Virus record (IMG/VR): IMGVR_UViG_3300028888_000127
Coordinates: 3,964 to 67,963 of that record
Origin: a virus
Lineage: Duplodnaviria; Caudoviricetes
Direction: 5' to 3' (one strand)
DNA: 64,000 nt
The notes below the pieces were generated by a model. It was not told where the DNA came from and searched no databases. It saw only the letters and a program-made list of their open reading frames with translations. Numbering within the stretch: the first letter of the stretch is position 1; each line of letters begins with the position of its first letter. The position numbers were made by a program, and so were the translations under genes. Below, piece by piece: positions 4,742 through 29,174 of the stretch.

Positions 4742-6427
4742 TTATCTTTCGTTTTTCCAAACATATTTTATTAATCCGCAGTCATATATTTTATAATAGC
4801 CCAATTTTTCAGTCATTTCAGATTCTGTCATTGATAATTGGAAACCATATTTTTTGTGAAGTATTTGCTTTCTTAAATTAAATTTATGAACTCTTTTTTG
4901 CGTGAAATTTATGTTAACATATCTGTAATCAGGCGGAAGAATTTTAATTAGTTTAAATCCTATTTTTGTATATACATTGTTTTCATAATTAATCGTCCAT
5001 CTTCTATCAGCAAATGATTTAACTTCTTTTGGATTAAATATTTTTAAAAAATGCTTAAATAATTTACCGCCAACTCCACAGCAAACATAGTTATAATTTG
5101 TTGCAAATCTAATTAATTCCCATTCGTTATTGTTGTTTACTTTTTTAAATTGCATAACACCGACTAATTTATTTTCAAAAAAAGCTCCATAACTTACTGT
5201 AGAATTGCCATACCCTTGAATATGATATTCTGTTAAAAAGCATTTTGCTTCTTGTTTTGTAATCTCTTTTATTTCACAATTTCTTGCATATATTTTTTCT
5301 TTATTATTATTTAAGCCTAATATATGCTTTAATTTTTCTTTTACGATTTTATCATGGTATAGCCATTCATCTTCGAAAATATGTAATAGGTCTATCCCTT
5401 TATCTTTACATTGTTCAGTTTTAAGCAAATGATAATTTTTATCTTTGTTAAATAACTCAGAGTGCCATCTAATACCATCAAATTCTATAGCTATTTTTTT
5501 TTCAGGTATATATATGTCTAATTCTTTTGGCTTAATAACATTTCTGTTTCTTGTTTCAATTTTTCCTGTATATATTTCTTTTAAAAAACTTATAAGTTCT
5601 TCTTCCCCTGTTGATTTTGAATGCCCACATATTTGGCATCCACTGCCATGAATATGTGCATCTGGCGTTTGTAAAAATTCTCCATGTTTAGGACAAATTA
5701 TTGTTATATTGGATTTAGAATTAATATAGTTAACTTTTGAATAATCATACTTATCTCCATGTATTTCTTTTGCCTTTTTAACAAAATCATCAAGTTTCAT
5801 TGTCTCTGCAAAAGAAGCGTTAATTCTTCCACATTTAGGACATCCACATTTTAAATTATTATGTGCATATGGAGTTTGCCAAAACTCGCCATGCTCAGGA
5901 CATATGATGCAAACTTTAGTATTTGCATTAACATATTCTGTTTTTGAGTAGTCATATTTGTTTCCATGAACTTCTTTTGCTTTTTCTATAAAATCTTCTT
6001 TTTTAAATGAAAATAAAATCCTTTTTTTATTTGAAAAGCATTTTGGACAGCCATTACCATTTAAATGAGCATATGGTGCTTGACAAAATTCTCCATGTTC
6101 AGGACAAATTATACAGACTTTAGTCCTATTGTTTACATATTTCACTCTTGAATAATCATATTTTTCACCGTGTACTTTTTTTGCTTTTTCTATAAAATCT
6201 TCTTTATTATTTTTTTTTGCATTATTTGATTTTATATGGCCACATTTAGGACATCCACATTTTAAATTGTTATGCACATATGGAGTTTGCCAAAATTCAC
6301 CGTGCTCAGGACAAATTATACAAACTTTAGTATCACAATTTTTATAAATTACTTTTGAATAATCATATCTATTATTGTGAATTTCTTTTGCTTTATTAAT
6401 AAAAAATATATTTTTATTTTTTTCCAT
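4742..6427 (-). CDS. free-standing Hef-like homing endonuclease (4 Zn repeats, Vsr/PD-(D/E)XK nuclease, Mom-like GNAT domain)
   Basis: 4 x KAKxxHxxKYDYS...CPxHGEF..GCxxC; LDIYIPEKKIAIEFDGIRWHSE...HIFEDEW; IYARNC...ELIRF...SFADRRW...YTKIGF. Confidence 0.85.
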   Translation of the reverse strand: MEKNKNIFFINKAKEIHNNRYDYSKVIYKNCDTKVCIICPEHGEFWQTPYVHNNLKCGCPKCGHIKSNNAKKNNKEDFIEKAKKVHGEKYDYSRVKYVNNRTKVCIICPEHGEFCQAPYAHLNGNGCPKCFSNKKRILFSFKKEDFIEKAKEVHGNKYDYSKTEYVNANTKVCIICPEHGEFWQTPYAHNNLKCGCPKCGRINASFAETMKLDDFVKKAKEIHGDKYDYSKVNYINSKSNITIICPKHGEFLQTPDAHIHGSGCQICGHSKSTGEEELISFLKEIYTGKIETRNRNVIKPKELDIYIPEKKIAIEFDGIRWHSELFNKDKNYHLLKTEQCKDKGIDLLHIFEDEWLYHDKIVKEKLKHILGLNNNKEKIYARNCEIKEITKQEAKCFLTEYHIQGYGNSTVSYGAFFENKLVGVMQFKKVNNNNEWELIRFATNYNYVCCGVGGKLFKHFLKIFNPKEVKSFADRRWTINYENNVYTKIGFKLIKILPPDYRYVNINFTQKRVHKFNLRKQILHKKYGFQLSMTESEMTEKLGYYKIYDCGLIKYVWKNER

Positions 6428-6439
6428 TTTCGTTTTTTT

Positions 6440-6449
6440 TATAAATAGT
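6440..6449 (-). promoter_or_regulatory. putative late promoter ACTATTTATA
   Basis: Lies 13 nt upstream of the ATG at 6427. Confidence 0.6.
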
Positions 6450-6490
6450 TTATAATCCTAAATTATTAAACATTTTACCATCAAATCAAA

Positions 6491-8167
6491 TTATCTTTTG
6501 TTTTTCCAAATATATTTTAAAGTTCCGCAATCATATATTCTATACCACCCATTGTTTTCACAAAATTGTTTTTCTGTCATATTTTTAGGACATCCATATT
6601 TTTCAACTAAAATATTTTTCCTTAATGAAAATCTATTAATTCGTTTTTTATTTATAACATAAAAATAACTTGGTTCTGTTGTTCCATAAAATTCAAATCC
6701 AATGGCTTCATATAAGTTTCCATTCGACCATCTTCTATCGGCAAAAGTTTCAATTTTTAAAGGATTGTATTTTTCAATAAAATATTTAATCAATTTACTT
6801 GCTGCACCAATAACATTAAAATCTATCTTGTTACAAAATCGAATGAGTTCATAAGTGTTGTCTTCATTTTTTCTTGAAATGTTTATTCTTTTTTTGCCAA
6901 AAGTCATCAATGAAACTAATTCATCTTTATAATAAAGTCCAATTCTTATTTTTGACGGTACGTATCCTTGTAAATGATTTGTTTGTAAAAATAATTTACT
7001 GTCACTTAATGACACTTCTTTTATTTCACAATTCCTTGCGTATATTTTTTCGCTTGTTAAATGTAATATATTTCTTATTCTACTTTTGCAAATTTCATTT
7101 TTATACTTCCATTCATCTTCGAAAATATGAATTAGAGTAACATTTTTTTCTGCGCATTTTTCCGTTTTTAATAAATGATAATTTTTATTGTTTTCAAATT
7201 TTTCAGAATGCCAAATCAACCCATTCATTTCAAAGCCAATTTTATGCTTTGGTACATAGACATCTATTTCTTTTCCGTCTAATATGCTCCTATCATTTTC
7301 TACGATGGTTTCGTTTGGTAATATTTCTTGTATAAACTCTAACAATTCTTTTTCCACAAAAGATTTATCTTTAAAGCATTTAGGACAGCCTTCGCCAAAA
7401 ATATGGTTTCTTGCTATTTGCGAAAATTCTCCATGAATAGGGCAAATTATAGTAACATTATTTTTACTGTTAGTATAATCAACTTTGGAATAATCATATT
7501 TATTACCATGTGTTATTTTTGCCTTTTCAATAAATTCTTCTGTTGTTAATGTTTTCTCTCCTGAAGTTTTTTCATGCCCACAAATAGGACACCCTTGTTT
7601 CCCTTTTATGTGGTTGTTGAATGTTTGATAAAAAACTCCATGTTGTTTACATATAATAGGATATTTTTCTCTATCATTTTTATATTCAGTAATTAACGAA
7701 TAATCATATTTATTTCCGTGAATTTCTTTAGCCAGAGAAATGACATCTTCAAGGCTTCTTCTTTTACCATTTGCTGATTTTATATATCTACACTTTGGGC
7801 AGCCTTCACCGGAAAGCAAATGTCCTGGCACTATTTCGAAATCTCCATGGTCTTTACATGTAACAACTATTTTTGTCTTATTGTTTATATATTCAACTTT
7901 GTCAAATGAATAATTAGAGCAATGTTCCAATTTTGATACTTTCTCTATGAATCTTTTTGTGTCATATCTGCCTTTATTACTACAGAATGGACATCCTTGT
8001 TTCCTACTTATGTGGTGTTCAAAATCCTTATAAAAAACGCCATGCTCTTTGCATATTATAGGGTTTTTTATTTTCATTCCTCTATATTCATTAATCAATG
8101 AATAATCATAAGCATTGTTATGAATTTCATTTGATTTTGTAATTAAATCGTTTAATTTGTTTTCCAT
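6491..8167 (-). CDS. second Hef-like homing endonuclease (same architecture)
   Basis: 4 Zn repeats; IDVYVPKHKIGFEMNGLIWHSE...HIFEDEW; YELIRFCNK...TFADRRWSNGNLYEAIGF. Confidence 0.85.
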   Translation of the reverse strand: MENKLNDLITKSNEIHNNAYDYSLINEYRGMKIKNPIICKEHGVFYKDFEHHISRKQGCPFCSNKGRYDTKRFIEKVSKLEHCSNYSFDKVEYINNKTKIVVTCKDHGDFEIVPGHLLSGEGCPKCRYIKSANGKRRSLEDVISLAKEIHGNKYDYSLITEYKNDREKYPIICKQHGVFYQTFNNHIKGKQGCPICGHEKTSGEKTLTTEEFIEKAKITHGNKYDYSKVDYTNSKNNVTIICPIHGEFSQIARNHIFGEGCPKCFKDKSFVEKELLEFIQEILPNETIVENDRSILDGKEIDVYVPKHKIGFEMNGLIWHSEKFENNKNYHLLKTEKCAEKNVTLIHIFEDEWKYKNEICKSRIRNILHLTSEKIYARNCEIKEVSLSDSKLFLQTNHLQGYVPSKIRIGLYYKDELVSLMTFGKKRINISRKNEDNTYELIRFCNKIDFNVIGAASKLIKYFIEKYNPLKIETFADRRWSNGNLYEAIGFEFYGTTEPSYFYVINKKRINRFSLRKNILVEKYGCPKNMTEKQFCENNGWYRIYDCGTLKYIWKNKR

Positions 8168-8215
8168 AGCATTATTTATATATAAATATCCAAATAATCC
8201 AAAAAAGCAATTATT

Positions 8216-8785
8216 TTATTGTACATTTTTTAGAAATTGTAATCCGGCTAAACATGTTTTTGAAAATTTTACGTTTTCATCATAATTTTCCATGAAAATT
8301 TTATAAAAAAGTTTTTTATATGATTCTGAATAATTAAGTACTTTTTGTGGAACCCTATCTATTTCTCCTTTTGCAAGTGCAATTGCAGACTCATGGATAT
8401 ATTTTCCTTGGCTCGCAAGATATCTTATATTAGGAAAATCTATTTTTCCGTTAAAATATTCAAGTTTAGTATTGTCTGTTATTTCAGAAGGCTTGATTTT
8501 TTCTTTATTTGAATCAAACAGGCTATGGTCTTCTGTGACTTCAACAAACATTTCTCCATCTGAAATTTCATAAATATCCTTATCCGTTTTATGCCTATAA
8601 ATATAAGATGGCTCTACCCATCCACTTCTACATAATACATAATATGGTTTTTCCCCATAATCGTATTCACGGCCTAATTCATCAATGCTAATTTGACTTT
8701 CATCAATAAGTTCACATATAGGAACAATGTCAATAAGCCCTGTTTCTTTGTACTTAATAAACAACGGCGTATCTTCTGTAAAAGA
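8216..8785 (-). mobile_element. split intein, IntN (189 aa)
   Basis: Block A SFTEDTPLFIK and block B VEVTEDHSLF. There is no intein C-terminus before the stop codon. Confidence 0.9.
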
Positions 8786-10786
8786 ATCTCCAACAATTGG
8801 TTGATATCCAAGTTTTGTAAACCAATAAATCATTAGTCTAAGTGCCATTCTACCGGTACAAGTTGTTCTCTCAGCGCAAGCAATAGAAGCCCACGGAAAA
8901 ACATTAGGTGCACCATAAGAACCAAAAAATGAATTGCCAAAAATTTTCAGAGGTAACTGTTTTTTATCATTTGCAGATTCCTCTTGTGCAGCATCCAACA
9001 TTTTCCTGTTAAGTTCGTCTTTTAAATGTAAATCCGAACAAGATTCTATTTCTTTTTTATATTTGTCTTTTTCTTTACCTGCTTTTTTCTTTAAATCTTT
9101 ATATTTTTCACGCTGTGTTAAAACGTGTTCCAAGAAATAAAGCATAGAATGAAGCAAATCTTTTGCATCAGTGATACCCCAAGTAAGAATTATTGATGGA
9201 TAAAGTGAATTATAGTCAAATTTTGCAACATTGTCAACGAATCCAACTTTAAGAAGACGTGAAAGTCCACCTGTGAAAGTTTTTCTTTCTGAAAATTGAG
9301 GGATTGCCAAGTTGTTTTCATAACTCCAAGCAAGCATAATTGATTTCCACTGGCCAGCTGTACCCATTGTACAGCACTTGTCAAATGGAACAGGAATCAT
9401 TTTACAAATAAGGAAGTTTGGTGTGTTGTAACGATGTTCCACCATGTCACATTCCCACAAGTCATCAAGCAAATATTTTTGTCCTATATATTTTCCGTCA
9501 ACAACTTTATATCCTTCCAAAAGTTTGTTCTTTGTGTAAAGGACAAAAGTTGGGTTGTCTTTTCCTTTTTTCAATAATAGTTCTTCACTTTCACAAGAAT
9601 GATTTTCATCATATATATACCAATCACCTGTTTCATCGTTAATTGCAAATTTCCTATCATTATCATTCCAAATGTCTGAAATTTTATCACCCGGTATGTA
9701 AACACGGTTTTCTTTAATCAAATCTGAATACTTACTAACATACTTCAAATTTGAGAAAAGCATATTTGAATCCAATGCTTGTGCTCTTCTAACAGCATGC
9801 AAAGAATCGGTGATTATTATATTTGGAACAATAGTTTTATTGAATTTTTCAATTTCGCCACCTAATTTCAAAATTGACTCACGTTCATCTTTTCTGATTG
9901 ACTCTCCATTGAAAAATTTCTTTGATAGTTCTTCAAGAGAAGTTCCAAGTCTTTCACAAGCGCCAATAATTAACTGCCAGTCAAATGCCTCTCCATTATG
10001 TGCAGTAATTACATCGGGCCTAAAAGTATAAATTATTTTTAAAAATGTTATAATGCCATTTAATTCTGAAATATTTTTTTCTTCTTCAGTATTACCTTCA
10101 ACATTAATTAATTTTTCAAATTTAATATATTCCCCTTTATATTTTACAGGGCGATTAAATCTTATACCAAACTGTTCTATTCTATCCTTTTTTGTGTTAA
10201 GACCAGTTGATTCCAAGTCGAATATAAGTCTTAAAATATCATTATAATCCTCATACCCCTTAAAGAACCTCTTTCCTGTTGAAATCATGAATTGCTCTTT
10301 GGGCGTAACAGTTAAATACTGTTTTTCTTCATTTTTTTGGGTTCCACCTTTGTCATCTTTCTTTTTTCTACTCGAAACAGGATTTCCTGCTTTTTTGAAA
10401 AAGTCCAAAAAGTCAGAATAACTCATCGGTACTGTTGCATAGAACAAATATGTATATCCATTCTTAATTTCTTCTACAACTTCACCATCAGAATTTGTCA
10501 CATCAAGTGCCTTAACCCATATTCTATATTTTTTTAGCAGATATCTTACTTTTTGTTTATCACCATCACATAGCCTTTTGCAAGCCTTTTCTGTCGCCCA
10601 CAAAAACGGCATAAATGGTTCTTGAGAAACACATTTGTCATCGTTTTCGTTTCTGTAAAATACTGTTATGAAATTATTTTGATATTTGTAATCAAGGTTT
10701 ACAATTCTTTCTTGTTCGTCTCTACCATTTAAAAACGTACTGATTACTTCAGGAGTAATCTCTTTTTTAATAAAATTTTGCCCCAT
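8216..10786 (-). CDS. polB: family B DNA polymerase N-terminal subunit (3'-5' exonuclease, motifs A and B) fused to split intein N-half
   Basis: ExoI LIFDLESTG, ExoII AHNGEAFD, motif A KFDYNSLYPSII, motif B KIFGNSFFGSYG, then YQPIVGD|SFTEDTP (intein start). Confidence 0.93.
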   Translation of the reverse strand: MGQNFIKKEITPEVISTFLNGRDEQERIVNLDYKYQNNFITVFYRNENDDKCVSQEPFMPFLWATEKACKRLCDGDKQKVRYLLKKYRIWVKALDVTNSDGEVVEEIKNGYTYLFYATVPMSYSDFLDFFKKAGNPVSSRKKKDDKGGTQKNEEKQYLTVTPKEQFMISTGKRFFKGYEDYNDILRLIFDLESTGLNTKKDRIEQFGIRFNRPVKYKGEYIKFEKLINVEGNTEEEKNISELNGIITFLKIIYTFRPDVITAHNGEAFDWQLIIGACERLGTSLEELSKKFFNGESIRKDERESILKLGGEIEKFNKTIVPNIIITDSLHAVRRAQALDSNMLFSNLKYVSKYSDLIKENRVYIPGDKISDIWNDNDRKFAINDETGDWYIYDENHSCESEELLLKKGKDNPTFVLYTKNKLLEGYKVVDGKYIGQKYLLDDLWECDMVEHRYNTPNFLICKMIPVPFDKCCTMGTAGQWKSIMLAWSYENNLAIPQFSERKTFTGGLSRLLKVGFVDNVAKFDYNSLYPSIILTWGITDAKDLLHSMLYFLEHVLTQREKYKDLKKKAGKEKDKYKKEIESCSDLHLKDELNRKMLDAAQEESANDKKQLPLKIFGNSFFGSYGAPNVFPWASIACAERTTCTGRMALRLMIYWFTKLGYQPIVGDSFTEDTPLFIKYKETGLIDIVPICELIDESQISIDELGREYDYGEKPYYVLCRSGWVEPSYIYRHKTDKDIYEISDGEMFVEVTEDHSLFDSNKEKIKPSEITDNTKLEYFNGKIDFPNIRYLASQGKYIHESAIALAKGEIDRVPQKVLNYSESYKKLFYKIFMENYDENVKFSKTCLAGLQFLKNVQ

Positions 10787-14020: not shown

Positions 14021-14980
14021 TTATTTTTTAATTATCTTCATTAAAAATTCTTTTATTAATTTAATATCATATGTGTTATTTTCGTTATAAATTTCTTCAT
14101 TTTTATTACTATAGTTTTTATTAATTATATACAAAATTCTTATTCCATTATTTTCACATAGTTTCTTTTTGTTTTTATCTCTTTCTACTATAGTTTCCAA
14201 ATCTTCCCATAATTTTGAGCCAATAAAATGTTGTTTTCCTTGACACTCAATTGCTGTTTTATAGTCTGGTAAATAAAAATCTAAACTTAGTTTTCCTAAA
14301 AAATCAAATCGTTGTTGCTCTGTAAAATTAATGTTTAATTCTTGTAATATCATTCTAATTCTTTTTTCTAATACTGAATTACATTTACATTTTGGACATC
14401 CTTCTCCTTTTAAATGATTATGTGGCAACTGTTTAAAATCTCCGTGAATTTGGCATGTAATTATTACATTTTCTTTACTGTTTTTATATATTGTTTTTTC
14501 GTAGTTATATAAATCCCCATGTATTTTTCTTGCACGTTCTATAAATTTATTAGTATTCAAGCATAAATTATGAGTTGAATATCCAAATGTTAAATGATTG
14601 TTTGGAGTTTGCCAAAACTCTCCAATTTCAACGCCATATGCATCTTTTTCATGTGATATTATGCATACTTTTTCATTACTTTTAACATAATTAACTTTTG
14701 AATAGTCAAATTTATTGCCATACTTTTTGATGGCTTTTTTTATAAAACTTTCAGTATTCTCTCTTAAATTTTTGCCTTCTTTTATCCATCCGCATTTATG
14801 GCATCCATATTTTCTACATAAATGGTCATTTGGCTTCATCCAAAATTCTCCATGCTCAGGACATATTATGCAAACTTTTGTTTTTGTGTTTACATATTCA
14901 ACTTTAGAATAATCATATTTATCACCATGGATATCTTTTGCTTTCTTAATAAATTCAGAATTTGTTAATTTTTTAGGCAT
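14021..14980 (-). CDS. Zn-repeat Vsr/DUF559-like homing endonuclease (no GNAT domain)
   Basis: 3 KAKxIHGDKYDYS..CPxHGEF repeats; LSLDFYLPDYKTAIECQGKQH...DKNKKKLCENNGIRIL. Confidence 0.8.
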   Translation of the reverse strand: MPKKLTNSEFIKKAKDIHGDKYDYSKVEYVNTKTKVCIICPEHGEFWMKPNDHLCRKYGCHKCGWIKEGKNLRENTESFIKKAIKKYGNKFDYSKVNYVKSNEKVCIISHEKDAYGVEIGEFWQTPNNHLTFGYSTHNLCLNTNKFIERARKIHGDLYNYEKTIYKNSKENVIITCQIHGDFKQLPHNHLKGEGCPKCKCNSVLEKRIRMILQELNINFTEQQRFDFLGKLSLDFYLPDYKTAIECQGKQHFIGSKLWEDLETIVERDKNKKKLCENNGIRILYIINKNYSNKNEEIYNENNTYDIKLIKEFLMKIIKK

Positions 14981-15027
14981 ATATACTGTCTTTTAATTGT
15001 ACGTTATTTTTACAATTATAAATATGC

Positions 15028-18000
15028 TCATTTATTTTTTTCATTTTCTTTTTTTATTATTTGATTTATTGTCAGTTCTTTTTTCATAACAGTATTCCAT
15101 ATCTTTTCATATTGTGTTCCTCTGAAAATTTGATAATATATATCAACATCTTTTTTTTGGCCTATGCGGAAAATTCTATCTTCCATCTGTTTATTGGAAC
15201 TTGGTACATAATCAATATCATTGAATATAAGTTTGTTTGAAACAACCAAATTAAGGCCGACTCCAGCGGCAAACAATTGCCCAATGAAAACCATTTTGTC
15301 AGGATTTGTTAAAAATGCTTCTTTTGCAGCATCTTTTTGCTTTGGATTTAATTTTCCGTTGAAAATAACACATTTATCGCCATAATAATCCCTTAACGTA
15401 TATAATTCTTCGTCATAACAAGTTGCAATAATAACTTTGTCACCGTTTTTTATGAACTCGTCAGTAAGTTTTATGGTATTTGGAATCATTTGATTGGAAC
15501 AATACTTTCTATAAACAGCACCTTCTAATAAATCCTTGTTTATTTCTTTTGTTGGGTCCAATTCGAGTTGTGCAGCCTCATATTCTTCCCAAAGACGTGC
15601 ATATTCAAACTCTTGCTTCATATCGAAATCATAGAATAGTTCGTGTATTGTCTTATTTGGCAATCCTTCGGCAATATCTTCTTTTGTACGTCTCAAATAT
15701 ATGTGAGATACTTTAAGTTTTAACTCTTCAAGGTTAGTCGGGTCTTTTAAAATTGTTATTTTCCTTGCATTTGCATTAATGTATTCCTTTAACTCATCCT
15801 TTTCCTTAGATGTTAGTTCTCCCCAACATGTCGGCGCAACTTTTCCTGCATTTCCATACTCACGTTTTTTCTTTTCAAAGAAAAACTTGGACCATTTTTC
15901 CTTTTCTCCTTTTGCTGGTATTTTCATCGCGCCGCAATATCTTTCCATGTAATAATTCCAATCATTTGTAATGTCTTCATTTAGAAGTTTCAATAAACAA
16001 TAGAAATTTGCAGGATTATTGGTAATAGGTGTCCCTGTTGCAAGGTATATGCTATGTGGATTTCCACGTTTTATGAAATCGCTTATTATTTTGTACCTAT
16101 CTGATGTTGAATTGGACAGCCTATGTGCTTCGTCAATTATCAAAAGTGTCTTTTTATTCATTGCATATTGAAGCATAGGGCTTTCATCATATGCTTTTTT
16201 TATGTTTTCAGCACTTCTTGTCCTTGGAATCTTGTAAAATTCATCAAGAATATCAAAATTGACAATAACAAACCTATTATCTTCCCATTTTCCACGATTT
16301 TTCGCTTCTTCAAGCAATTGTTCTCTTTTAAGTCCTGATTTGCCAACGCCATATCCAAGCAATTTTTCTAATTCAGGCTTTGTTTTGTCGTTAACTCCAT
16401 CAATAATTGATATATCCTTTTCAGGAACATACCAAAGTAACTCATCACGCCAATTTGTCTTTAAAGAAGCGGGACAAATTATCAATACAGAGTCGAAATT
16501 TCCTTCAATTGCAGCAACAGACAGTTCGGTGGTATTATGTGTAACTATGTAATTTTTACCCGTCAAATAAGTATGTTCATCATAATCAACCATAATACAT
16601 CTTGCATCCTCGTTTCTATCATATTCTGCTGATACAATATATTTAGAGCAATATTTTAAATATGCAGGATGGTATTTTTCTGATTTTCTTGTTAAATAAA
16701 ACGGATTTTCTTTTATTTGTATTCTTACTTGATATTCTGTATTTTTTTTGTTTTTATGATTATATTTTCCAATTCTTGCAATTCCTCCAAGCGAAAAAAC
16801 AAGTTCAGCGACATCATTTGCTAATTTTTCTGAATTTGTGGAAAAAGATATTCTGTTGTTTTTTCCAATTGTACCATCTGAATCCATTAAGCCTCTTAAT
16901 AAATCTAAGCGTTGTGAAATTGAGCCAAGTTTATATTCGGTTGGGATAAATTTATAATTTCCTTTTACATTTAGCCCTAATCTTTTTATTTCAGATATAT
17001 AATCATTCCTAAACTTTCTAACTTTATGCATTATTCTATATCTTGGACAATTTGTGCTTCTGTCTTCTTTTAGAATCATATCTTCTCTAAGCAATGCTTC
17101 AATTCTATTTGCTGTTTCTTTTTCATTATCAGGTATTGAAATATTTATTCCGTTATTACACAAATTTCCATCTCCAATGCACATTCCTAATATATATGGA
17201 TGAATTAAATAGTCTTTTTCTTTATATTGGACTGGTAATGTAACCGGTATTTCATACTTGTTTCTTGGATTTAACCCAATTTTTACCCTACTTTCATCTG
17301 TATATTGTAATTTTGATTCTATTAGTTCTTTTAATGACATAGTTTTCCAACCCTGTTTCCTTTTTGTCATATTTTTAGTCCTAACTTTCCACAAATGGTC
17401 AAGGCCGCAATAAGAAAAAGTACCATCACTAAATGTTATTTTATAGATTTCTTTATCTTTATGTTCGAATATTTTTGTTATTGGGTATAAATTGCCATCT
17501 TCACCAAAGACCATATCACCAAGTTTTAATTCTCCAAAAGTCTTAAATCCATTTTCTGTTGGAATTAATGATGATATTGGCTCCATTTTTCCTAATCCCA
17601 TGTCATCTGCTAAAATACACTTTTTCCTATGCAAAAGGAATTGAACTGCTTCTTTTTGGTGAGGTTTAAGTATTCTGTTTGGGTCTTTTTCTGTTGATAA
17701 GTTGTCATAACGGTCAAAATCCACTTGAACAGAGTGATAATCTCCAATCAAGAAGTTTCCAAGTACTGCTTTCTTTGGTAAAAAAATCTCCATCGTTTCC
17801 ATATTTTGCCTATATTTGATAGTGCAATGGAAAGCAACTGATGTTTCCCCAAAATATGTGTAAATTCTTATCTTTTGAGGAATAAATTCTAATTCATAGT
17901 CGTTTTTAAGTTTTTCGCCATACCAGTCAGCAATTGAAACGTTCTTGTTTATCTGAATTGGTGAAAAATTATGGTTTTTCTTTATATACTCAACCACGTA

Positions 18001-18129
18001 TTCATTAAGCAAATCCGTTTTTCTGCATAAAATAATGTCTCTTTTAAGCCTTAAAAGGTACGGATTAGGACCATTGTAACTGTTTAGTATGTCTATTGCT
18101 TCATTTTTTCCTTTTATCGTGTTAAACAT
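15028..18129 (-). CDS. SNF2-family helicase/ATPase containing an intein
   Basis: LKPHQKEAV, ILADDMGLGK|TT, IICPASL, IIDEAH, LATGTP, GVGLNL, QMEDRIFRIGQ. Confidence 0.93.
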   Translation of the reverse strand: MFNTIKGKNEAIDILNSYNGPNPYLLRLKRDIILCRKTDLLNEYVVEYIKKNHNFSPIQINKNVSIADWYGEKLKNDYELEFIPQKIRIYTYFGETSVAFHCTIKYRQNMETMEIFLPKKAVLGNFLIGDYHSVQVDFDRYDNLSTEKDPNRILKPHQKEAVQFLLHRKKCILADDMGLGKMEPISSLIPTENGFKTFGELKLGDMVFGEDGNLYPITKIFEHKDKEIYKITFSDGTFSYCGLDHLWKVRTKNMTKRKQGWKTMSLKELIESKLQYTDESRVKIGLNPRNKYEIPVTLPVQYKEKDYLIHPYILGMCIGDGNLCNNGINISIPDNEKETANRIEALLREDMILKEDRSTNCPRYRIMHKVRKFRNDYISEIKRLGLNVKGNYKFIPTEYKLGSISQRLDLLRGLMDSDGTIGKNNRISFSTNSEKLANDVAELVFSLGGIARIGKYNHKNKKNTEYQVRIQIKENPFYLTRKSEKYHPAYLKYCSKYIVSAEYDRNEDARCIMVDYDEHTYLTGKNYIVTHNTTELSVAAIEGNFDSVLIICPASLKTNWRDELLWYVPEKDISIIDGVNDKTKPELEKLLGYGVGKSGLKREQLLEEAKNRGKWEDNRFVIVNFDILDEFYKIPRTRSAENIKKAYDESPMLQYAMNKKTLLIIDEAHRLSNSTSDRYKIISDFIKRGNPHSIYLATGTPITNNPANFYCLLKLLNEDITNDWNYYMERYCGAMKIPAKGEKEKWSKFFFEKKKREYGNAGKVAPTCWGELTSKEKDELKEYINANARKITILKDPTNLEELKLKVSHIYLRRTKEDIAEGLPNKTIHELFYDFDMKQEFEYARLWEEYEAAQLELDPTKEINKDLLEGAVYRKYCSNQMIPNTIKLTDEFIKNGDKVIIATCYDEELYTLRDYYGDKCVIFNGKLNPKQKDAAKEAFLTNPDKMVFIGQLFAAGVGLNLVVSNKLIFNDIDYVPSSNKQMEDRIFRIGQKKDVDIYYQIFRGTQYEKIWNTVMKKELTINQIIKKENEKNK
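16534..17586 (-). mobile_element. 351 aa intein with LAGLIDADG endonuclease in Walker A (class 3, WCT type)
   Basis: GLGK|MEPISSLIPTENG...DHLW...ILGMCIGDG...LLRGLMDSDG...ARCIMVD...IVTHN|TT. Confidence 0.93.
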
Positions 18130-20167: not shown

Positions 20168-23071
20168 ATGATAAGTGATGCAAGAGGTAGGCATGTTTCA
20201 CCTGGTGTATATACCGAAGAAAAAGATGTAACTTATTCAGTTAAAAGTCTTGGTATTACAAGTCTTGGACTTGTTGGTGAAACCTTGTATGGTCCTGCTT
20301 TTGAAAACATTGAAATTGAAGAATGGAGTGATTTTGTTGATTACTTTGGCGGAACTTCATCTGAAAAATTCAGGAAAACTGGATTGCCAAAATATGAACT
20401 TCCATACGTTGCTAAGAGTTATTTGACAAAATCAAAGAGACTTAACGTTGTTAAGGTTCTTGGACTTTCAGGATATGAAGCTGGTAGATGTTGGGTTATT
20501 AAAACAGCAAAAGTTGAACCAACGGCAGAATCAGGATGGACTTATAATGATGGGGTAGATAAAAATGGAAATACTTTGCCACCATTTGAGGCAAAGCCAT
20601 TGATTATTTTGAGAAGTAAAATGACTTATAATGCGCCAGGAGAAGGTGGAATTTGTAAGCCACAAACAGATACACCATCAGAGTTGGTAGAAAGTATCTC
20701 AGTTGTTCCATATAAACCAGCATTTTACAGTTCAGACTGTGTTGTGGTCGGTAGTGGGAAAACATTTGATTCTTGCAGAAAGCTATGTATAGACGTTATG
20801 TTGAAAGAAAAAGTAGGCGAAGACAATATTCATGAAGTATATAATGTTTCATTGGACCCAAGAGACAGCGACTATATTTACAAAGTTATTAGTTCAAGTC
20901 CTGAATATGGAAAAAGTTCAATTTATGTTGAAGAAATTTTTGAAGCAGGTTTGAATGAAGTTGTTGGTAGATTAACAAGTGGTACTACTGAAAGAACCTT
21001 TATTAAAGAAGTTTATGCTTGTGTTGATATACCTTCAGGAACAACTTCAGAACTAGAACCTTTAACTGACGATGACGATTTATATAACGATTATAAGAGC
21101 CAATACAGATGTGCTCAAACTCCTTGGGTCGTATCTGAAGCATATGCTTCACAAAATCAGCCTGATGGTAACGGTAACGGAGACTGTGGATTGAACATTA
21201 CACTTAGAAGATTGTTCAAACTATTGACTATTTCAGACGGTAATGCCGCAAACTATCAAGTAAAAGTTTCATTTGAAAAAATTAATCCATTCGATGGAAC
21301 ATTTGATGTTGTTGTAAGGGATTTTAACGATAATGACACATATCCTGTAGTGCTTGAGAAGTTCGCAAAGTGTACAATGACAAAAGGAGATACTTCATTC
21401 ATTGGCTACAAAATCGGTACAAGCGATGGCATGTATGCAACAAAGTCAAAATATATCACAGTTATGCTTGCTGATGATATGGAAGATTATAGTGGAAGCG
21501 TACCTTGCGGATTCTTAGGCTATCCTTGCCCAACATATGGAACTAATGTTGTTCCCGAAATTTCATACAATACTGTTTATAATCCTAATATTAAGGCAAA
21601 GAAACAATATTTTGGGCTTTCTGGAATTGATAATGATTTCTTGTCATTCAAAGGCATTAAACTTTATGACGATGACCTTGGAGGACGTTCAATGAATGAT
21701 AGCTGCGAAGGTGATGAAACAGGATGCTGCTTTGTTTTGCAAGATACATATACAAAAGGTTTCCATATGGATTCAATCTTCAGTATGCTTGGAACTAACG
21801 GAAAGATAACAATTGATGGTGATGTATATACAGACGGATTTGACTATGTTTCACCGTTGAAAGTTACGGCACACAATTATATCCCAAGAATTACATCAGA
21901 AACTCTTCCTGGGACAAACGAAACAGAAAAGCAACAAAGAATTATTAACGGTGGTTATATGTCAGAAACCATATACAAAGACCCTGAAGTACGTAAGTTT
22001 ACTGTTTGCTTCTATGGAGGTTTTGATGGATGGGATGTGCACAGAGGATATAGAACTAATTTAGATGCCTTCAACGCAAATGCGTATGGTACAACAGATA
22101 CCTATGGACAAGTTTGCAATTGGCAATATTTCAAGTTGCCACAATATATGAATAATACAAGTGACTATTATGCATATCTTGCGGGATATCAAGTATTATC
22201 CAACCCACAAGACGTTGAAATCAATGTGTTTGCAACACCCGGAATAGACTGGTTTAACAATTCACTTTTGACACAGGATGCAATTCATATGATTGAAGAC
22301 CCTGATGATGGCAGAGGCGGTGATGCATTATACATAATGAATTCACCATATTATGACTATAAGAATGTTACAACTTCACCTGAAGGCTATGGAGTTTATC
22401 CTATCACAGACGTTGATGAATTAGTTTCATTGTTTGACGATACTGAAATAAATTCTTCATATGCTTGTACATATTTCCCATGGGTTCTTTTCAAAGATAC
22501 CGTAAGAAATGAGTACTTGTATTTGCCACCAACAAAGGATGTTGTAAGAAATATTGCTGATACTGATAACACATTGTTCCCATGGTATTCACCTGCTGGT
22601 ATCTCGCGTGGTTCTGTTGTTTGCGAAAAAGCTGCATTCAAGACAACGTTGCCTGAGGAAGATGTTTTGTACGGAAACAGAATCAATCCTATCAAGACAT
22701 TTGGTAAAGACGGTGTTAAGGTTTGGGGCAACAAGACTGCTTATGAAATTGATAGTCCTCTTAACAGAATCAATGTCAGAAGACTTATGATTAGGGTTAA
22801 GAAACTTGTCACATCAGCAGCTAAACATTTGATATTTGAACAATATGACGATGCTCTTGAAAAGCAATTTAGGGGATTGGTTGAACCAATTCTTGCGGAA
22901 GTTAAGTCAAATAGAGGTATCTTCGATTATAGGGTTATCACAGAAGTAACTCCTGAAACAAGAGACCAACATATATTACCTGCTAAGATTATGATTAAGC
23001 CAACTCCTGCTTTGGAATATATTTCTATCTCATTCGTTGTATATCCTGAGAGCGTTGCATTTGAAGAATAA
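20168..23071 (+). CDS. contractile tail sheath protein
   Basis: N-terminal HVSPGVYTEEKD..GLVGETLYGPAF; C-terminal PWYSPAGISRG...RINPI...VWGNKT...LNRINVRRL...PTPALEYISISF. Confidence 0.95.
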   Translation: MISDARGRHVSPGVYTEEKDVTYSVKSLGITSLGLVGETLYGPAFENIEIEEWSDFVDYFGGTSSEKFRKTGLPKYELPYVAKSYLTKSKRLNVVKVLGLSGYEAGRCWVIKTAKVEPTAESGWTYNDGVDKNGNTLPPFEAKPLIILRSKMTYNAPGEGGICKPQTDTPSELVESISVVPYKPAFYSSDCVVVGSGKTFDSCRKLCIDVMLKEKVGEDNIHEVYNVSLDPRDSDYIYKVISSSPEYGKSSIYVEEIFEAGLNEVVGRLTSGTTERTFIKEVYACVDIPSGTTSELEPLTDDDDLYNDYKSQYRCAQTPWVVSEAYASQNQPDGNGNGDCGLNITLRRLFKLLTISDGNAANYQVKVSFEKINPFDGTFDVVVRDFNDNDTYPVVLEKFAKCTMTKGDTSFIGYKIGTSDGMYATKSKYITVMLADDMEDYSGSVPCGFLGYPCPTYGTNVVPEISYNTVYNPNIKAKKQYFGLSGIDNDFLSFKGIKLYDDDLGGRSMNDSCEGDETGCCFVLQDTYTKGFHMDSIFSMLGTNGKITIDGDVYTDGFDYVSPLKVTAHNYIPRITSETLPGTNETEKQQRIINGGYMSETIYKDPEVRKFTVCFYGGFDGWDVHRGYRTNLDAFNANAYGTTDTYGQVCNWQYFKLPQYMNNTSDYYAYLAGYQVLSNPQDVEINVFATPGIDWFNNSLLTQDAIHMIEDPDDGRGGDALYIMNSPYYDYKNVTTSPEGYGVYPITDVDELVSLFDDTEINSSYACTYFPWVLFKDTVRNEYLYLPPTKDVVRNIADTDNTLFPWYSPAGISRGSVVCEKAAFKTTLPEEDVLYGNRINPIKTFGKDGVKVWGNKTAYEIDSPLNRINVRRLMIRVKKLVTSAAKHLIFEQYDDALEKQFRGLVEPILAEVKSNRGIFDYRVITEVTPETRDQHILPAKIMIKPTPALEYISISFVVYPESVAFEE

Positions 23072-23126: not shown

Positions 23127-23179
23127 GTTTTAATTTAATATTTATTGTATGATAAAGTTAAAATAAATGTTATTCAACC

Positions 23180-24954
23180 ATGAGAAAACTTACAAAAGAA
23201 CAGTTTATTGAAAAAGCAATAGAAATACACGGCAACAAATATGATTACTCGAAAGTAAATTATGTTGATGCGAAAACAAAGGTTTGCATTGTTTGCCCAG
23301 AACATGGTGATTTTTTGCAATTACCATATAATCATTTGAATGGGAACGGATGTCCTTCTTGCGTAAGACATAAATGGGATACAGATAGTTTCATAAAGAA
23401 AGCCATGGAGGTACATGGTGACAAGTATGATTATTCAAAGACTGAATTTAAGTCAACAAGAGAAAAAGTTTGTATAATATGCCACGAGCATGGTGAATTT
23501 TGGCAATATCCGTTATCACATTTGAATGGAATGGGATGTGGAAAAGAAAGTAGGGGAATAAGGGAAAATTGCTGGGAAAACAGGAAATGCCCTGTATGCG
23601 GAAAAATATTCAAAGAGCGTAAGAAATATAAGAAAATATGTTGTTCCGAAGAATGCCGCAAAATATATGTCAAAGAACATATGGATGAAATAAACAGAAA
23701 GCGTTCAGAATCATTAAAAGAAACTTTTTCAAAAAAGACGAAATTCGATTACGAGAAAGCATACGAAAAGAAAAAGAAACTTGCATTGAAAGGTATGGCG
23801 TTGCTAATTTCTCAAAAACAGAAATGGGACGCGAAATATCAAGAAAAAACATGACAAAGTTAAGAAGGGAAAATGTCGAAACGATTAAAAATGAAATTTT
23901 GATTCCGAAATATAAGGAATTGTGTGAAAATGATGGCTTGGAACTATTGGAATTTAGGAACCGATTTGATTGTACTGTAATGTGCAAAAAATGCGGAAAC
24001 ATATTTGTGACAAGAACACTTGGCTATTTAACTGAAAAAGACACGACAAAAAGATGTAAAATATGTAACCCATATTTGGTTGTCCCAAATAAAAACAATG
24101 AAATTGAGAATGATTTTTCAAAGTTTCTTGAAGAATGTAATGTTAAATTTTATCGTAATTATAGGGGAATAATATCGTCAATGGAGATTGATTTTTATTT
24201 GCCTGACTATAAAATTGGATTTGAAATTGATGGTATATATTGGCATTCAGAAGTATATAAAAACAAAATGTACCATAAGGAAAAAACAAATAAATATCAA
24301 GAAAATGGGGTTATGCTGATTCATATTTTCGAGGATGAATGGTGTTTCAAGAAGGAAATATGCAAATCAAGGATAAAAAGCATATTAAATATGACGGAAA
24401 CGAAATTATATGCAAGAAACTGTGATATAAGAACCGCTGATAAAAAAAGTGCAATAAAGTTTTTGGAAGAAAACCATATACAGGGAAATACGGTTTTTAA
24501 ATATGCTTACGGATTATATTATGAAAATGAATTGGTATCTTTAATGACATTTGGCTCGCTTAGGAAAAATTTGGGGCAAAAAAGCAAGGAAGGACATTAT
24601 GAAATGCTAAGGTTTTGCAATAAAATTGGGCATAATGTTGTTGGCGGTGCAAGTAAACTATTAAAGCGTTTTATTAATGAAAAGAGCCCTAAACAAATAA
24701 TATCATATTCAGACAATAGATGGTCAACGGGAAATTTGTATGACAAATTAGGGTTTACGTTAGAACGAGAGACGGACCCAAATTATTATTATGTTATTGG
24801 AAATAAGAGAATTAATAGATATTCATTACGAAAAAACATTCTTGTTGAAAAGTATGGATGCCCAAAAGAAATGAGCGAACATGATTTTTGCATTAGTAAA
24901 AGATGGTATAGGATATATGATTGTGGAAACAAATTATGGTCAATAAATTTATAA
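23180..24954 (+). pseudogene. Hef-like endonuclease split across two frames (-1 shift near 23731-23780); pseudogene or programmed frameshift
   Basis: ORF 23180-23854 carries the Zn repeats. The -1 frame is open from 23689 and reads ETCIERYGVANFS, then the nuclease (EIDFYLP..FEIDGIYWHSE) and GNAT (SYSDNRWS) domains. Confidence 0.75.
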
Positions 24955-25946: not shown

Positions 25947-25962
25947 TTTTATAGAAAAAAGT

Positions 25963-26898
25963 ATGAATGTTTTAGTTACTGGCGCAGAAGGACAACTTGG
26001 CAGGTGTATTGTTGATGTGTTCAAATATTTTGACAACGAAAACAAATATATTTTTATGCCAAGAGAACTTTTTGATTTAACAAATAAAGAGCAAATGCAT
26101 GAGCAGTTTGAAATGTTTAATCCTAATATTGTTGTAAATTGTGCTGCATATACAAATGTAGAAAAAGCTGAAGAAAATTCAATTGATACAATTAGCGTTA
26201 ATTATCTTGGAGTTGGGGATTTAGTAAAACTATGTGAAACTTATGGTGTGTATTTAATTCATATTTCAAGTGATTATGTTTTTAATGGAAAGTCAAGTAA
26301 ACCATACAAAGAAGATTCAAATGTAAACCCATTAAATATTTATGGGGTTTCTAAGGTAGGTGGAGACAATTTTGTTGTCGGATACAACAGAGGAATTGTT
26401 TTAAGGACTTCTTGGCTTTATTCTGAATATGGGCATAATTTCTATAGAACTATGATTGAACGAATAAAGGAGCAAAAAGAAACAAACGTAGTTAATGACC
26501 AAATAGGAACGCCAACATATGCAAAAGATTTGGCTTTGTTTATAGTAAGAGATTTGATTGCTTCAAATAAATATAAAGAAGTTAGAGGCATTTACAATTT
26601 TTCAAATAATGGAATTGCTTCTTGGTATGATTTTGCTTCAATGATAGAAACATTCTATCAAAATTTCGGTCCATATGAGCCAATGATAAAAGACCCTGTT
26701 GATATTAAATTTGAAGTAAGTCCATATCCTAAAAAATACATAAGTCCAACAACAAAAAAATATAAGACAAAAGCAAAAAGGCCAATGTATTCAGTTCTTG
26801 ACAAAACAAAAGTTGAAAATGAATTTGGAATTAAGATTCCGCATTGGACTGAATCATTATTGAAGTGTATGAAAAACGATGGAAAAATAAAAGGCTGA
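25963..26898 (+). CDS. rfbD: dTDP-4-dehydrorhamnose reductase
   Basis: MNVLVTGAEGQLG, NCAAYTNVEKAE, ISSDYVF, YGVSK, LRTSWLY, DQIGTPT, RPMYSVLD. Confidence 0.93.
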   Translation: MNVLVTGAEGQLGRCIVDVFKYFDNENKYIFMPRELFDLTNKEQMHEQFEMFNPNIVVNCAAYTNVEKAEENSIDTISVNYLGVGDLVKLCETYGVYLIHISSDYVFNGKSSKPYKEDSNVNPLNIYGVSKVGGDNFVVGYNRGIVLRTSWLYSEYGHNFYRTMIERIKEQKETNVVNDQIGTPTYAKDLALFIVRDLIASNKYKEVRGIYNFSNNGIASWYDFASMIETFYQNFGPYEPMIKDPVDIKFEVSPYPKKYISPTTKKYKTKAKRPMYSVLDKTKVENEFGIKIPHWTESLLKCMKNDGKIKG

Positions 26899-26916
26899 TT
26901 GTTAGTCAGCCTTTTT
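26889..26916. terminator. bidirectional terminator; direct repeat with 27500-27527
   Basis: AAAAGGCTGATTGTTAGTCAGCCTTTTT. Confidence 0.85.
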
Positions 26917-26944
26917 ACATATATAATGGTGTTTTTAATCCTTG

Positions 26945-27277
26945 TTAAAAGTTTTCAAGTATTTCTTCAAATACTCTTCTTCTTTCTGGTTTACTAAGAT
27001 TTAGTTCTTCTGCATACTTATCGGTATTTGGGTTCCCTGACCAAATCTGAACTATCCCATCATCAGTAAGATGAATGTAGTCAACTAAACTGCCATTAGC
27101 CACAATTCTGAATTTTGAAACACTAATTGTATTTGTACCAAATTCCTCAAATAGTTCATAGATATCAGAATATCCATTCTCTTTCAATAATCTCGTTTCC
27201 TTTAGTACTTTCTTTACACTTTCAGCAACAATCTTCTTAAGTTGTTGCTCATTTAATTTTATTATATTCTTTTTCAT
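26945..27277 (-). CDS. conserved-leader protein 3
   Basis: MKKNIIKLNEQQLKKIVAESVKKVLKE leader; promoter motif at 27379-27388. Confidence 0.85.
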   Translation of the reverse strand: MKKNIIKLNEQQLKKIVAESVKKVLKETRLLKENGYSDIYELFEEFGTNTISVSKFRIVANGSLVDYIHLTDDGIVQIWSGNPNTDKYAEELNLSKPERRRVFEEILENF

Positions 27278-27499
27278 ATTCTTGTTTATTTTTGATTCTT
27301 TTGTTATTCCTTCATCAATAAAGATAATAGAAATGTTGATACAATGAGACGGTTCTATTAAACGTTATCTACTTTTATTATAAATAGTTTATCTTTGTGA
27401 AAAAGATGAAATATGTACAAGAAATTAGCTGACTTAAATACTGTTGTGATATTATTTGTTGCCAATATATTGAAACAACAAGTATATTATCCCAAAAAC

Positions 27500-27527
27500 A
27501 AAAGGCTGATTGCTAGTCAGCCTTTTT
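27500..27527. terminator. terminator; direct repeat with 26889-26916
   Basis: AAAAGGCTGATTGCTAGTCAGCCTTTTT (1 mismatch). Confidence 0.85.
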
Positions 27528-29174
27528 CCATATATACCTGATTAAGCCACAGTCGTATATCTTTTCGTACCCAAGTTGCTTCGTCATTTCTGATTCTGTC
27601 ATTGATAACGGTAATCCATATTTATGGTTTAGCAGTTTTTTTCTAAAGCCAAACTTATGCTGCCTTTTGATTCCATCGGAAGGGCTGAAGTATTTGTAAT
27701 CCGGCTCTGTATATCCGTCAAATACAAACCCAAGTTTTGTATAGACATTTGATTCTTCGTTTATTGTCCATCTTCTGTCTGCAAAGGATTTAATAACGTC
27801 AGGGCCGTATTCCCTTACGAAATATTTGAAAAGTTTACCACCAACACCTTGGCAAATGTAATTGTAATCACTTGCAAATCTAACCAATTCCCATCTATTG
27901 CTTTCTTTTGTTTCTTTTTTGAATGACATTACTGCTATTAGCAAATCGTTAAAAAATGCCCCAATGCTAATCGTAGAAGGACCATATCCTTGTATATGGT
28001 ATTTGTTAAGGAAACTTTTAGCCAAACCATTGTCAATTTCCTTTATTTCACATTTTCTTCCCATTATCTTTGGAAGGTTTTCGCTAACACCAACCAAATG
28101 CTTTATCTTGTTTAGCACAATATCCTTGCTGTTTACGTATTCGTCTTCGAAAATCTGGATTAGTTTTACCCCCTTTTCTTTACAAGCATTTAGTTTTTTT
28201 AAATGGTTGCTTTTTTCTATGTTTGAATGCCAAAAAAGGCCATTATATTCAATCCCAATTTTTAATGACGGAACATAAATATCTATTTCTTTTGGAGGAA
28301 TTAGTTTTCTTTCGCTTTGTATTACATTTTCTTTTCCAATTAATGATGTAATATAATCAAAAATTTCAGATTCTGCTTTTGATATATGATGAACACACTT
28401 TGGGCATCCGTTTCCGTCAAGATGCCTCCATGGAGCTTGCCAAAATTCGCCGTGTTTTGGGCATATTATGCAAACTTTGTTTTTTCCCGTAACATATTCA
28501 GTTTTTGAATAATCATATTTGTTATTATGTATTTTGTTTGATTTTTCAATGAAATCTTCAGTTGTTAATCTTTTTGACAAACCAAGTTCTTCATGGGCAC
28601 ATTTTTTACAAGATGAACCTTTAAGATGCAAATATGGCAATTGATAAAATTCTCCATGTTTAGGGCAAATTATACAAACTTTTGTAAGCATATCAATGTA
28701 TTCTGTTTTTGAATAGTCATATTTACAATTATGAACTTTATTTGCCTCTTGTACAAAAGTTTCCGTTGTGTATTTTTTATTCTTATGGATTGATTTCGAA
28801 CATATAGGACAACCTTTTCCTTTTAAATGGTTATGTGGGTCTTGAAAAAATTCGCCGTGTTCTGGGCATATTATACAAACTTTTGTGTGGCTATTAACAT
28901 ATTCAACTTTTGAGTAGTCATATCTATCCCCATGTATTTGCTTTGCTTTTTCAATGAACGAGTTATTAGAGCTCTTCATTGTTTTTGAACAGAATGGGCA
29001 TCCTTGTCCAATTAAATGTTTATCTGGCCTTTGAGAAAATTTTCCATGTTTTTTACAAATTATTGTTATGTTAGTTTTATTGTTTGTATAAGATACTTTT
29101 GAATAGTCATATCTATCTCCATGTATCTGTTTTGCTTTTTCTATAAAAGTTTTTGTTGTATTTTTTTTACTCAT
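27513..29174 (-). CDS. Hef-like homing endonuclease (4 Zn repeats, nuclease, Mom-like GNAT)
   Basis: EIDIYVPSLKIGIEYNGLFWHS...QIFEDE; WELVRFAS...KSFADRRW...YTKLGF. Confidence 0.85.
   Translation of the reverse strand: MSKKNTTKTFIEKAKQIHGDRYDYSKVSYTNNKTNITIICKKHGKFSQRPDKHLIGQGCPFCSKTMKSSNNSFIEKAKQIHGDRYDYSKVEYVNSHTKVCIICPEHGEFFQDPHNHLKGKGCPICSKSIHKNKKYTTETFVQEANKVHNCKYDYSKTEYIDMLTKVCIICPKHGEFYQLPYLHLKGSSCKKCAHEELGLSKRLTTEDFIEKSNKIHNNKYDYSKTEYVTGKNKVCIICPKHGEFWQAPWRHLDGNGCPKCVHHISKAESEIFDYITSLIGKENVIQSERKLIPPKEIDIYVPSLKIGIEYNGLFWHSNIEKSNHLKKLNACKEKGVKLIQIFEDEYVNSKDIVLNKIKHLVGVSENLPKIMGRKCEIKEIDNGLAKSFLNKYHIQGYGPSTISIGAFFNDLLIAVMSFKKETKESNRWELVRFASDYNYICQGVGGKLFKYFVREYGPDVIKSFADRRWTINEESNVYTKLGFVFDGYTEPDYKYFSPSDGIKRQHKFGFRKKLLNHKYGLPLSMTESEMTKQLGYEKIYDCGLIRYIWKKAD

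Follow-up and report, generated by a model that had tools for sequence, protein, structure and literature searches.

In the 64,000-nucleotide stretch of a Caudoviricetes genome analyzed here (IMG/VR record IMGVR_UViG_3300028888_000127, positions 3,964 to 67,963; hereafter the window), we identified five genes, designated A to E, that are predicted from their sequences to be free-standing homing endonuclease genes (HEGs) of the Hef-type family, in which an array of CapR/DUF4379/DUF723 zinc modules precedes a Vsr/EDxHD-like nuclease. The link to Hef is in part presumed from annotations of Campylobacter phage genes. We consider it likely that, taken as a whole, the arrays are best explained as zinc-module DNA-binding arms in which a set of variable residues takes part in the choice of target, and which acquire new combinations by recombination. 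The arrays almost certainly bind DNA, and there is a moderate probability that the variable residues contribute to target choice. The window proteins are ordinary members of a described HEG family and leave the knowledge of that family unchanged, and both the architecture and the general idea are already in print (bioRxiv 10.1101/2023.03.23.533998; PMC12350094).

The repeats were located by six-frame motif scanning and translation of the window. In total, 17 module copies were found in the open reading frames (ORFs) of the five genes (four each in A, B and C, two in D, and three in E), the number given in an earlier reading of the same DNA without database searches (hereafter the sequence-only reading), and a search of the full record of 67,963 bases revealed no further copies outside these five ORFs. 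The module core comprises ~59 amino acids (aa) and recurs with a start-to-start period of 62–70 aa, and the arrays are basic, with an isoelectric point (pI) of ~9. The ligand set C-x2-H...C-x2-C is intact in 15 of the 17 repeats; the second repeat of D has lost the CxxC of the second knuckle, and the second repeat of E has lost every zinc ligand. Among 749 unique repeats taken from 124 homologues and numbered by the columns of a hidden Markov model (HMM), the presumed ligands C32, H35, C51 and C54 are conserved to 99–100%, and the modules probably bind zinc. The scaffold had been described as constant, and entropy indeed peaks at the x positions of F-x-Q-x-P-x-x-H in the 17 copies and likewise in the 749 unique repeats. 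The seven-residue strings quoted for all 17 repeats agree exactly with our translations; of the seven residues after HGxF that had been called hypervariable, four are variable and three (Q, P, and H) conserved. The sequence-only reading took repeats 1 and 3 of A to be near-identical in DNA and recently duplicated. Their identity is 76% at the DNA level and 77% at the protein level, and a recent duplication is therefore rejected; any duplication must be old. The longest direct repeat, of 285 nt at a spacing of 411, is only 74% identical.

Profile searches assigned the repeats to two related families. DUF723 (PF05265) was matched by B, A, and E with 53.0, 30.9, and 22.0 bits, respectively (cut-off 20.9; E 3e-14), and DUF4379 (PF14311) by C, B, and A with 37.1, 27.8, and 26.6 bits (cut-off 24.5; E 4e-9); the matched repeat family is labeled 'probable treble clef zinc finger' in Pfam, and the repeats can be classed as DUF723/DUF4379 (CapR-like) zinc modules. 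At full length, the proteins match the 'homing endonuclease' PHROG 559/3339 with E values of 1e-94 to 1e-157. A search of the window proteins with the Pfam CapR family (PF21817) gave no match at E ≤ 0.01, and the CapR HMM was matched by 6 of 78 family representatives. A match was also obtained with the homologue AR9 gp145, whose module 1 matches CapR (E 2.7e-13) and aligns position by position with repeat 2 of A; AR9 gp145 is encoded within the beta' gene of the virion RNA polymerase and shares 35% identity with A over 87% of the length. PLE CapR is the sole relative with bench evidence: it is a domesticated HEG DNA-binding domain that binds DNA sequence-specifically and loses this binding on mutation of its Cys pairs (Netter 2021, PMC8096241). 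CapR and the window repeats are homologous zinc modules, but CapR is a repressor with a CxxC...CxC ligand set, a single module, and no nuclease, whereas the window repeats have CxxH...CxxC.

A two-repeat model obtained with AlphaFold2 (AF2) had a predicted local distance difference test score (pLDDT) of 88, with ~94 within the modules and ~61 in the linker. In this model, each module consists of helix a1 (FIEKAKxxHG), an extended YDYS stretch, a beta-hairpin, a short helix a2, and helix a3. The first knuckle, C-P-x-H, is located at the turn of the beta-hairpin and the P-x-x-H-L sequence forms a2, while the second knuckle, C-P-x-C, starts a3, which continues into the linker.

In A, B, C, and D' (the second of two ORFs at the D site), the array is followed by a Vsr/EDxHD-like nuclease block (ELDIY...IAIEFDGIRWHSE...IFEDEW). 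The block IAIEFDGIRWHS...IFEDEW aligns weakly to I-Bth0305I (PDB 3r3p; E 0.06), D' gives a weak match to TIGR00632 Vsr that is below the cut-off (E 7e-4), and D304, E315, H322, and D353 are invariant among 24 homologues. The Foldseek list of the full A model was occupied by matches to the GNAT domain, and the Vsr-like assignment rests on sequence; Hef-type enzymes have been placed in the EDxHD family (PMC3239194). In the full AF2 model of A (pLDDT 87), the C-terminal ~190 aa gave phage Mu Mom (8bv8) as the top Foldseek match (E 8.7e-7, probability 1.00), followed by many GNATs, and matched Pfam Mom (PF25680) weakly, with 20 bits under a cut-off of 27.1. This result, obtained with a predicted model, concerns the fold only, and neither family membership nor activity. 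A glycine-rich (V/I)GxxxKL stretch is conserved in the Mom-like tails; it sits where GNAT folds bind their cofactor, and may have a role in cofactor binding. The tails fall into two subtypes, RFAT...CxGVGGKL and RFCNK...GGASKL, which interchange between arrays. E differs in its tail, having a shorter nuclease and lacking the C-terminal Mom-like domain.

Among the 749 repeats, Q40, P42, and H45 are conserved, and peak entropies of ~3.1–3.7 bits were observed at HMM columns 25, 41, 43, 44, 47, 49, and 55–57 (2.8 bits at column 55), so the segment singled out in the sequence-only reading is part of a wider variable patch flanking the second knuckle. Given the periodicity of a helix, one face of a2 would carry columns 43, 44, and 47. 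Asp and Glu make up only 1–11% of the residues in the variable columns 41–49 and 25, where Asn, Gln, Ser, Thr, and His account for ~50%, compared with an Asp/Glu share of 34–51% in the variable a1-surface columns 4, 8, and 20. The scarcity of acidic and abundance of polar residues, together with the pI of ~9, fit a nucleic-acid-facing surface.

The behavior of these columns at a single insertion site was analyzed by fetching 80 loci around homologues of the tail tube gene (tube 68–99% identical). In many of these loci, a HEG of the family lies next to the tube gene, on its upstream or its downstream side; most loci are HEG-free. At the tube-upstream site, we obtained 12 non-redundant four-module arrays (pairwise <90% identical, mean 62%, minimum 47%); a D44 filter used in their selection dropped one HEG only, located elsewhere in its locus. 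Several residues that are rare in the family are invariant or nearly so in these arrays: R47 in repeat 1 (12/12; family frequency 15%), K44 in repeat 3 (12/12; 7%), D44 in repeat 4 (12/12; 8%), and H49 in repeat 4 (11/12; 11%). The helix-1 surface columns 4, 7, 8, 20, and 22 are randomized in the same arrays. Relative to size-matched family entropy, site entropy reaches a ratio of 0.95 in these surface columns, compared with 0.55 in the variable columns (Mann–Whitney p = 2e-4). Repeat 2 of the 12 arrays is poorly conserved. The tube-downstream orthologues of C, found at the same site as in the window in three other loci (L011, L021, and L022), retain 'DHNKK' in repeat 2. Among database homologues, a comparison of orthologue with paralogue identity gave a mild signal only, positional orthology being poorly defined. 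In distant phages, HEGs that share a site are not one another's closest relatives, which precludes drawing a residue-to-target correlation across sites.

The sequence-only reading had also proposed shuffling of repeats, and this was borne out by clean one-repeat indels and by exchange of arrays and tails at their junction among relatives. At the sheath site, L001 carries a four-module HEG, from which the orthologues in L007 and L005 (66% identical) differ by the absence of exactly one module. Between the tube-site HEGs of L001 and L002, identity is ~95% in modules 1–3 but falls to 35–50% in module 4 and throughout the tail, the two tails belonging to different subtypes. At the sheath site, the same two loci have tails that are 93% identical and arrays related through the scaffold only. 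The modules are also combined with other enzymes: in coliphage SophiaRose they are fused to T5orf172/MUG113, and the partner domains across the 78 representatives include GIY-YIG, DUF559, DUF2726, and a helicase. The arrays behave as portable units that very probably direct the nuclease to its DNA target, and modular targeting is plausible.

In the mechanism that we propose, each 62–70-aa repeat would be an independently folded zinc module, the modules being joined as beads on a string, and the chain would form a DNA-binding arm positioning the nuclease of a HEG inserted beside or inside a conserved phage gene. Columns 41, 43, 44, 47, 49, and 55–57, located in a2 and in the loops next to the second knuckle, would contact the DNA, and the variable residues would add to target choice in a context-dependent manner and jointly with the nuclease domain, and it is unlikely that single residues specify single bases. 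Recombination in the repetitive DNA, through gain or loss of repeats and exchange of arrays or tails, would give rise to new specificities. The nuclease, which had been regarded as non-specific, need not be so, and by analogy with I-Bth0305I, whose nuclease dimer supplies much of the specificity (PMC3239194), it may provide part of it.

Several observations weigh against a role of the arrays in target choice. We infer the orientation of the variable residues toward DNA from their composition and conservation only. A Foldseek search of the PDB for structural relatives of the module gave a best E value of 0.27, and the best Z in a wide VIA-align search was 4.4 (a trypanosome mitoribosome assembly protein), with no solved homologue or DNA complex, although the unmatched structure search does not make the module fold new. 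Sequence searches of the PDB matched the nuclease and GNAT portions weakly and no other part of the proteins. The conservation test covers one site, its cells are phylogenetically non-independent, and a context-specific structural constraint could mimic the pattern. One sheath-site tail occurs with two unrelated arrays; array identity does not simply track genomic position, and since replacement of arrays occurs at a site, a simple link between site and array is weakened. In I-Bth0305I, the only characterized enzyme with this nuclease fold, the contacts of the arm are mostly non-specific (PMC3239194).

Alternatively, the arrays could be affinity clamps of low or absent sequence preference that extend the footprint and hold the enzyme on the DNA, while the nuclease dimer gives the specificity and the variable residues are an unconstrained surface. 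The contacts of I-Bth0305I outside the central 14 bp, which are largely non-specific, have been assigned to its N-terminal arm (PMC3239194), and clamps would also accommodate the two unrelated arrays found with one sheath-site tail, the missing small vocabulary of residues (see below), and the degree of variation in the variable columns, which does not exceed that of the loop and linker columns 25 and 56. An unconstrained surface is, however, difficult to reconcile with the same-site arrays, in which the helix-1 surface randomizes (0.95) and columns 41–49 do not (0.55) and contain invariant rare residues. The depletion of acidic residues is likewise specific to columns 41–49, and the tube-site arrays have remained ~95% identical despite exchange of the entire catalytic tail. 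We regard clamps as a rather unlikely explanation.

At the other extreme, each module could read a fixed short DNA word independently of its neighbors, giving a code as predictable and reprogrammable as that of transcription activator-like effectors (TALEs) or C2H2 fingers. The window arrays resemble both in having tandem small modules with a constant scaffold and few variable residues, and their fusion to a nuclease recalls zinc-finger nucleases and TALE nucleases. They differ in that the modules are 62–70 aa long and have a treble-clef-like C-H-C-C ligand set instead of a beta-beta-alpha fold or a 34-aa helical repeat, and in having no restricted residue vocabulary. We found 675 distinct five-residue words among 746 repeats, where 739 would be expected with independent columns, and a small vocabulary like that of the repeat-variable diresidues (RVDs) of TALEs was thus rejected; the limited set of residue combinations expected of a code like that of C2H2 fingers or TALEs, with which the sequence-only reading compared the repeats, is not present. 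True modular reading would suit the beads-on-a-string architecture with its low-confidence linkers in the AF2 model, the natural indels and swaps of whole modules, the repeat-specific conservation of residues that vary in the family, and the placement of columns 43, 44, and 47 on one a2 face. However, the diversity is near-combinatorial, with no handful of RVD-like types, variability is distributed across three or more segments (columns 24–25, 41–49, and 55–57), and conservation is poor in repeat 2 of the same-site arrays, and we consider context-independent reading of this kind very improbable. A simple, portable code is likewise distinctly unlikely. There is a slim chance that the 62–70-aa modules are a third natural decipherable DNA-reading scaffold, after C2H2 fingers and TALEs, with one short word read per module through residues of a2 and the second knuckle (columns 41–49 and 55–57); if so, the natural arrays (35,032 clusters, see below) could be mined for a recognition table and for programmable nucleases.

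Mobility of the five HEGs was evident from a comparison with the contig IMGVR_UViG_3300028805_000624 (loci L013 and L092), which carries none of them and whose proteins are 94% (helicase), 98% (polB), 94% (sheath), and 97.5% (tube) identical to those of the window. C and D are absent in L013 and E is absent in L092. In L092 and L093, polB is uninterrupted, with GD joined to TDG at the catalytic motif; in the window, a 4.2-kb insertion (~4616–8786) consisting of an intein N-half, B, A, and an intein C-half separates D and T of GDTD. Presence/absence polymorphism at precise sites between near-isogenic genomes, by which homing genes are recognized, is thus observed. With two HEGs lying between its intein halves, the window polB is a 'fractured gene' of the split-intein kind previously described for Vsr-like HEGs (PMC2677866). 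The five paralogues and the near-isogenic HEG-free relative together provide four empty sites as candidate targets, namely the GDTD region of polB (L092, ~6970–7030) and the stretches that follow helicase (L092:2235–2426), tube (L013:867–937), and sheath (L013:2849–2931).

The Mom/GNAT-like domain raises the question of whether the genes serve primarily in homing. In jumbo phages, fusions of restriction endonucleases with Mom have been read as cut-and-protect systems (Iyer et al. 2021, PMC7824862), and the window proteins could similarly modify phage adenines with the Mom/GNAT-like domain and attack host or competitor DNA with the nuclease, the array placing both. Such a function would account for the fold match of the C-terminal ~190 aa to 8bv8 (E 8.7e-7), the weak PF25680 match, and the conserved (V/I)GxxxKL stretch. 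The polymorphism at precise sites in near-isogenic genomes, the split-intein site in polB, and the intron location in AR9 are, in contrast, typical of homing elements, and E and many relatives lack a Mom-like domain. We consider the cut-and-protect function improbable.

The window genes belong to a very large family. Relatives were found in 1,287 phage records by tblastn, a word-indexed protein search gave at least 8,000 clusters, and, in an exhaustive profile search, 35,032 clusters (at 50% identity) contained the two-repeat unit; the closest 120 homologues have 4–11 modules per array. According to its available text, a 2025 paper in Nucleic Acids Research describes three to five ~60-aa CapR/DUF4379/DUF723-like domains combined with an EDxHD/Vsr-like nuclease as a 'large unrecognized outgroup' that numbers in the thousands (PMC12350094). 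As in the window, the module array in that group is followed by the Vsr/EDxHD-like nuclease, in phage genes that are intronic or free-standing; the window genes differ in being free-standing or within a split intein, not in group II introns, and A, B, C, and D carry a ~190-aa Mom/GNAT-like domain that the available text does not mention. Barth, Dunham and Seed (2023) reported tandem CapR/DUF723/DUF4379 zinc fingers in T5orf172 HEGs as 'beads on a string', proposed that module exchange diversifies targets, and presented evidence of recombination between repeats and between HEGs (bioRxiv 10.1101/2023.03.23.533998). The nuclease of those HEGs is T5orf172 (GIY-YIG-like), whereas that of the window proteins is Vsr-like, and the available text of the preprint contains no per-position analysis of variability. 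I-Bth0305I likewise has an N-terminal DNA-binding arm followed by a C-terminal Vsr-like nuclease (PMC3239194), but its arm is built of NUMOD helix-turn-helix motifs instead of zinc modules, and the sequence match is weak (E 0.06). If the variable residues set the target, this family would constitute a natural library of modular DNA-binding arms wired to nucleases. It would then be relevant to phage genome evolution, in which homing drives exchange at conserved genes, and maybe as a source of genome-engineering scaffolds.

The positions of the five genes, their modules, and neighboring genes are summarized in the table. The flanking genes named in the sequence-only reading (polB, sheath, tube, and helicase) agree with the gene neighbors observed. 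Its count of five repeat nucleases was right as to the genes, but D does not encode one intact nuclease, its repeat ORF being out of frame with the nuclease ORF D'. The repeat ORF overlaps D' by 31 nt in another frame, and D is thus a broken or frameshift-dependent gene. An orthologue of E is present at L003.

Positions of the predicted homing endonuclease genes, their modules, and neighboring features in the window (repeats listed from repeat 1 onward)
Feature	Position	Strand	Description	Context
HEG A	4742-6427	-	561 aa; four modules, Vsr/EDxHD-like nuclease, Mom/GNAT-like domain	within split polB
A repeats 1-4	6230-6406, 6023-6199, 5819-5995, 5612-5788	-	zinc modules (predicted)	
A nuclease	~5312-5572	-	weak match to PDB 3r3p	
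A Mom/GNAT-like domain	~4745-5311	-	AF2 model; fold match to 8bv8	
HEG B	6491-8167	-	558 aa; four modules, nuclease, Mom-like tail of second ('RFCNK') subtype	tandem with A in split polB
B repeats 1-4	7973-8149, 7775-7951, 7571-7747, 7361-7537	-	zinc modules (predicted)	
HEG C	27513-29174	-	553 aa; four modules, nuclease, Mom-like tail	directly downstream of tail tube gene
C repeats 1-4	28974-29150, 28785-28961, 28584-28760, 28380-28556	-	zinc modules (predicted)	
HEG D, N-terminal ORF	23180-23854	+	two modules and an extra Cys-rich, Lys-rich stretch	downstream of sheath gene; frame differs from next ORF
D repeats	23201-23377, 23387-23563	+	intact; CxxC lost	
HEG D, C-terminal ORF (D')	23824-24954	+	376 aa; different zinc ribbon, Vsr-like nuclease, Mom-like domain	
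HEG E	14021-14980	-	319 aa; three modules, short PD-(D/E)xK-type nuclease tail; phrog_9084/7140	downstream of helicase gene
E repeats	14780-14956, 14558-14749, 14372-14548	-	intact; degenerate, no ligands; intact	
Tail tube gene	29357-29851	-		neighbor of C
Sheath gene	20168-23071	+		D downstream
Helicase gene	15028-18129	-		E downstream
Motif-bearing stretch, A	6428-6470			upstream of A
Motif-bearing stretch, B	8168-8200			upstream of B
Motif-bearing stretch, C	29175-29230			upstream of C
Motif-bearing stretch, D	23130-23179			upstream of D
Motif-bearing stretch, E	14981-15020			upstream of E

An (A/C)TATTTAT-type motif is located within ~15–45 nt before the start codon of all five HEGs, in DNA that is AT-rich and may hold such motifs by chance, and terminator-like hairpins also precede C and D. 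The upstream motif, together with the hairpins at C and D, suggests that each HEG is its own expression cassette.

In polB (window 2806–10786; L092:5001–8496), the N-terminal part ends with ...IVGD and continues into ~188 aa of intein-like sequence (SFTEDTPLF...), and the short ORF after B and A ends with ...NAISN|TDGFNF. A 318-bp segment at 4090–4407, called an ORF-less group I intron in another sequence-only note, is precisely missing from the L092 polB (L092:7207–7209), with flanks that are 83–93% identical in DNA. The helicase of L092 (L092:188–2209; 94% identical) has no counterpart of residues 182–532 of the window helicase (15028–18129), which fits an intein in the window copy. The insertion downstream of the tube gene (26899–29356) measures 2.4 kb and contains C and a 110-aa ORF (26945–27277, minus strand); the HEG-free relative has 72 bp at this site (L013:867–937).

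The tube gene and its upstream neighbor (29357–30284) are encoded on the strand opposite to the sheath and downstream tail genes in the window and in L011, L013, L014, L017, L020, and L022, while sheath and tube are co-directional in the more distant L038 and L001. This difference between close and distant relatives points to a local inversion beside the HEG hot spots. The record containing the window, of 67,963 bases, has a completeness estimate of 19%. Relatives of the tube gene in L011, L017, L022, L028, L073, and others are located on contigs of 200–400 kb, which places the window phage in a jumbo-phage clade.

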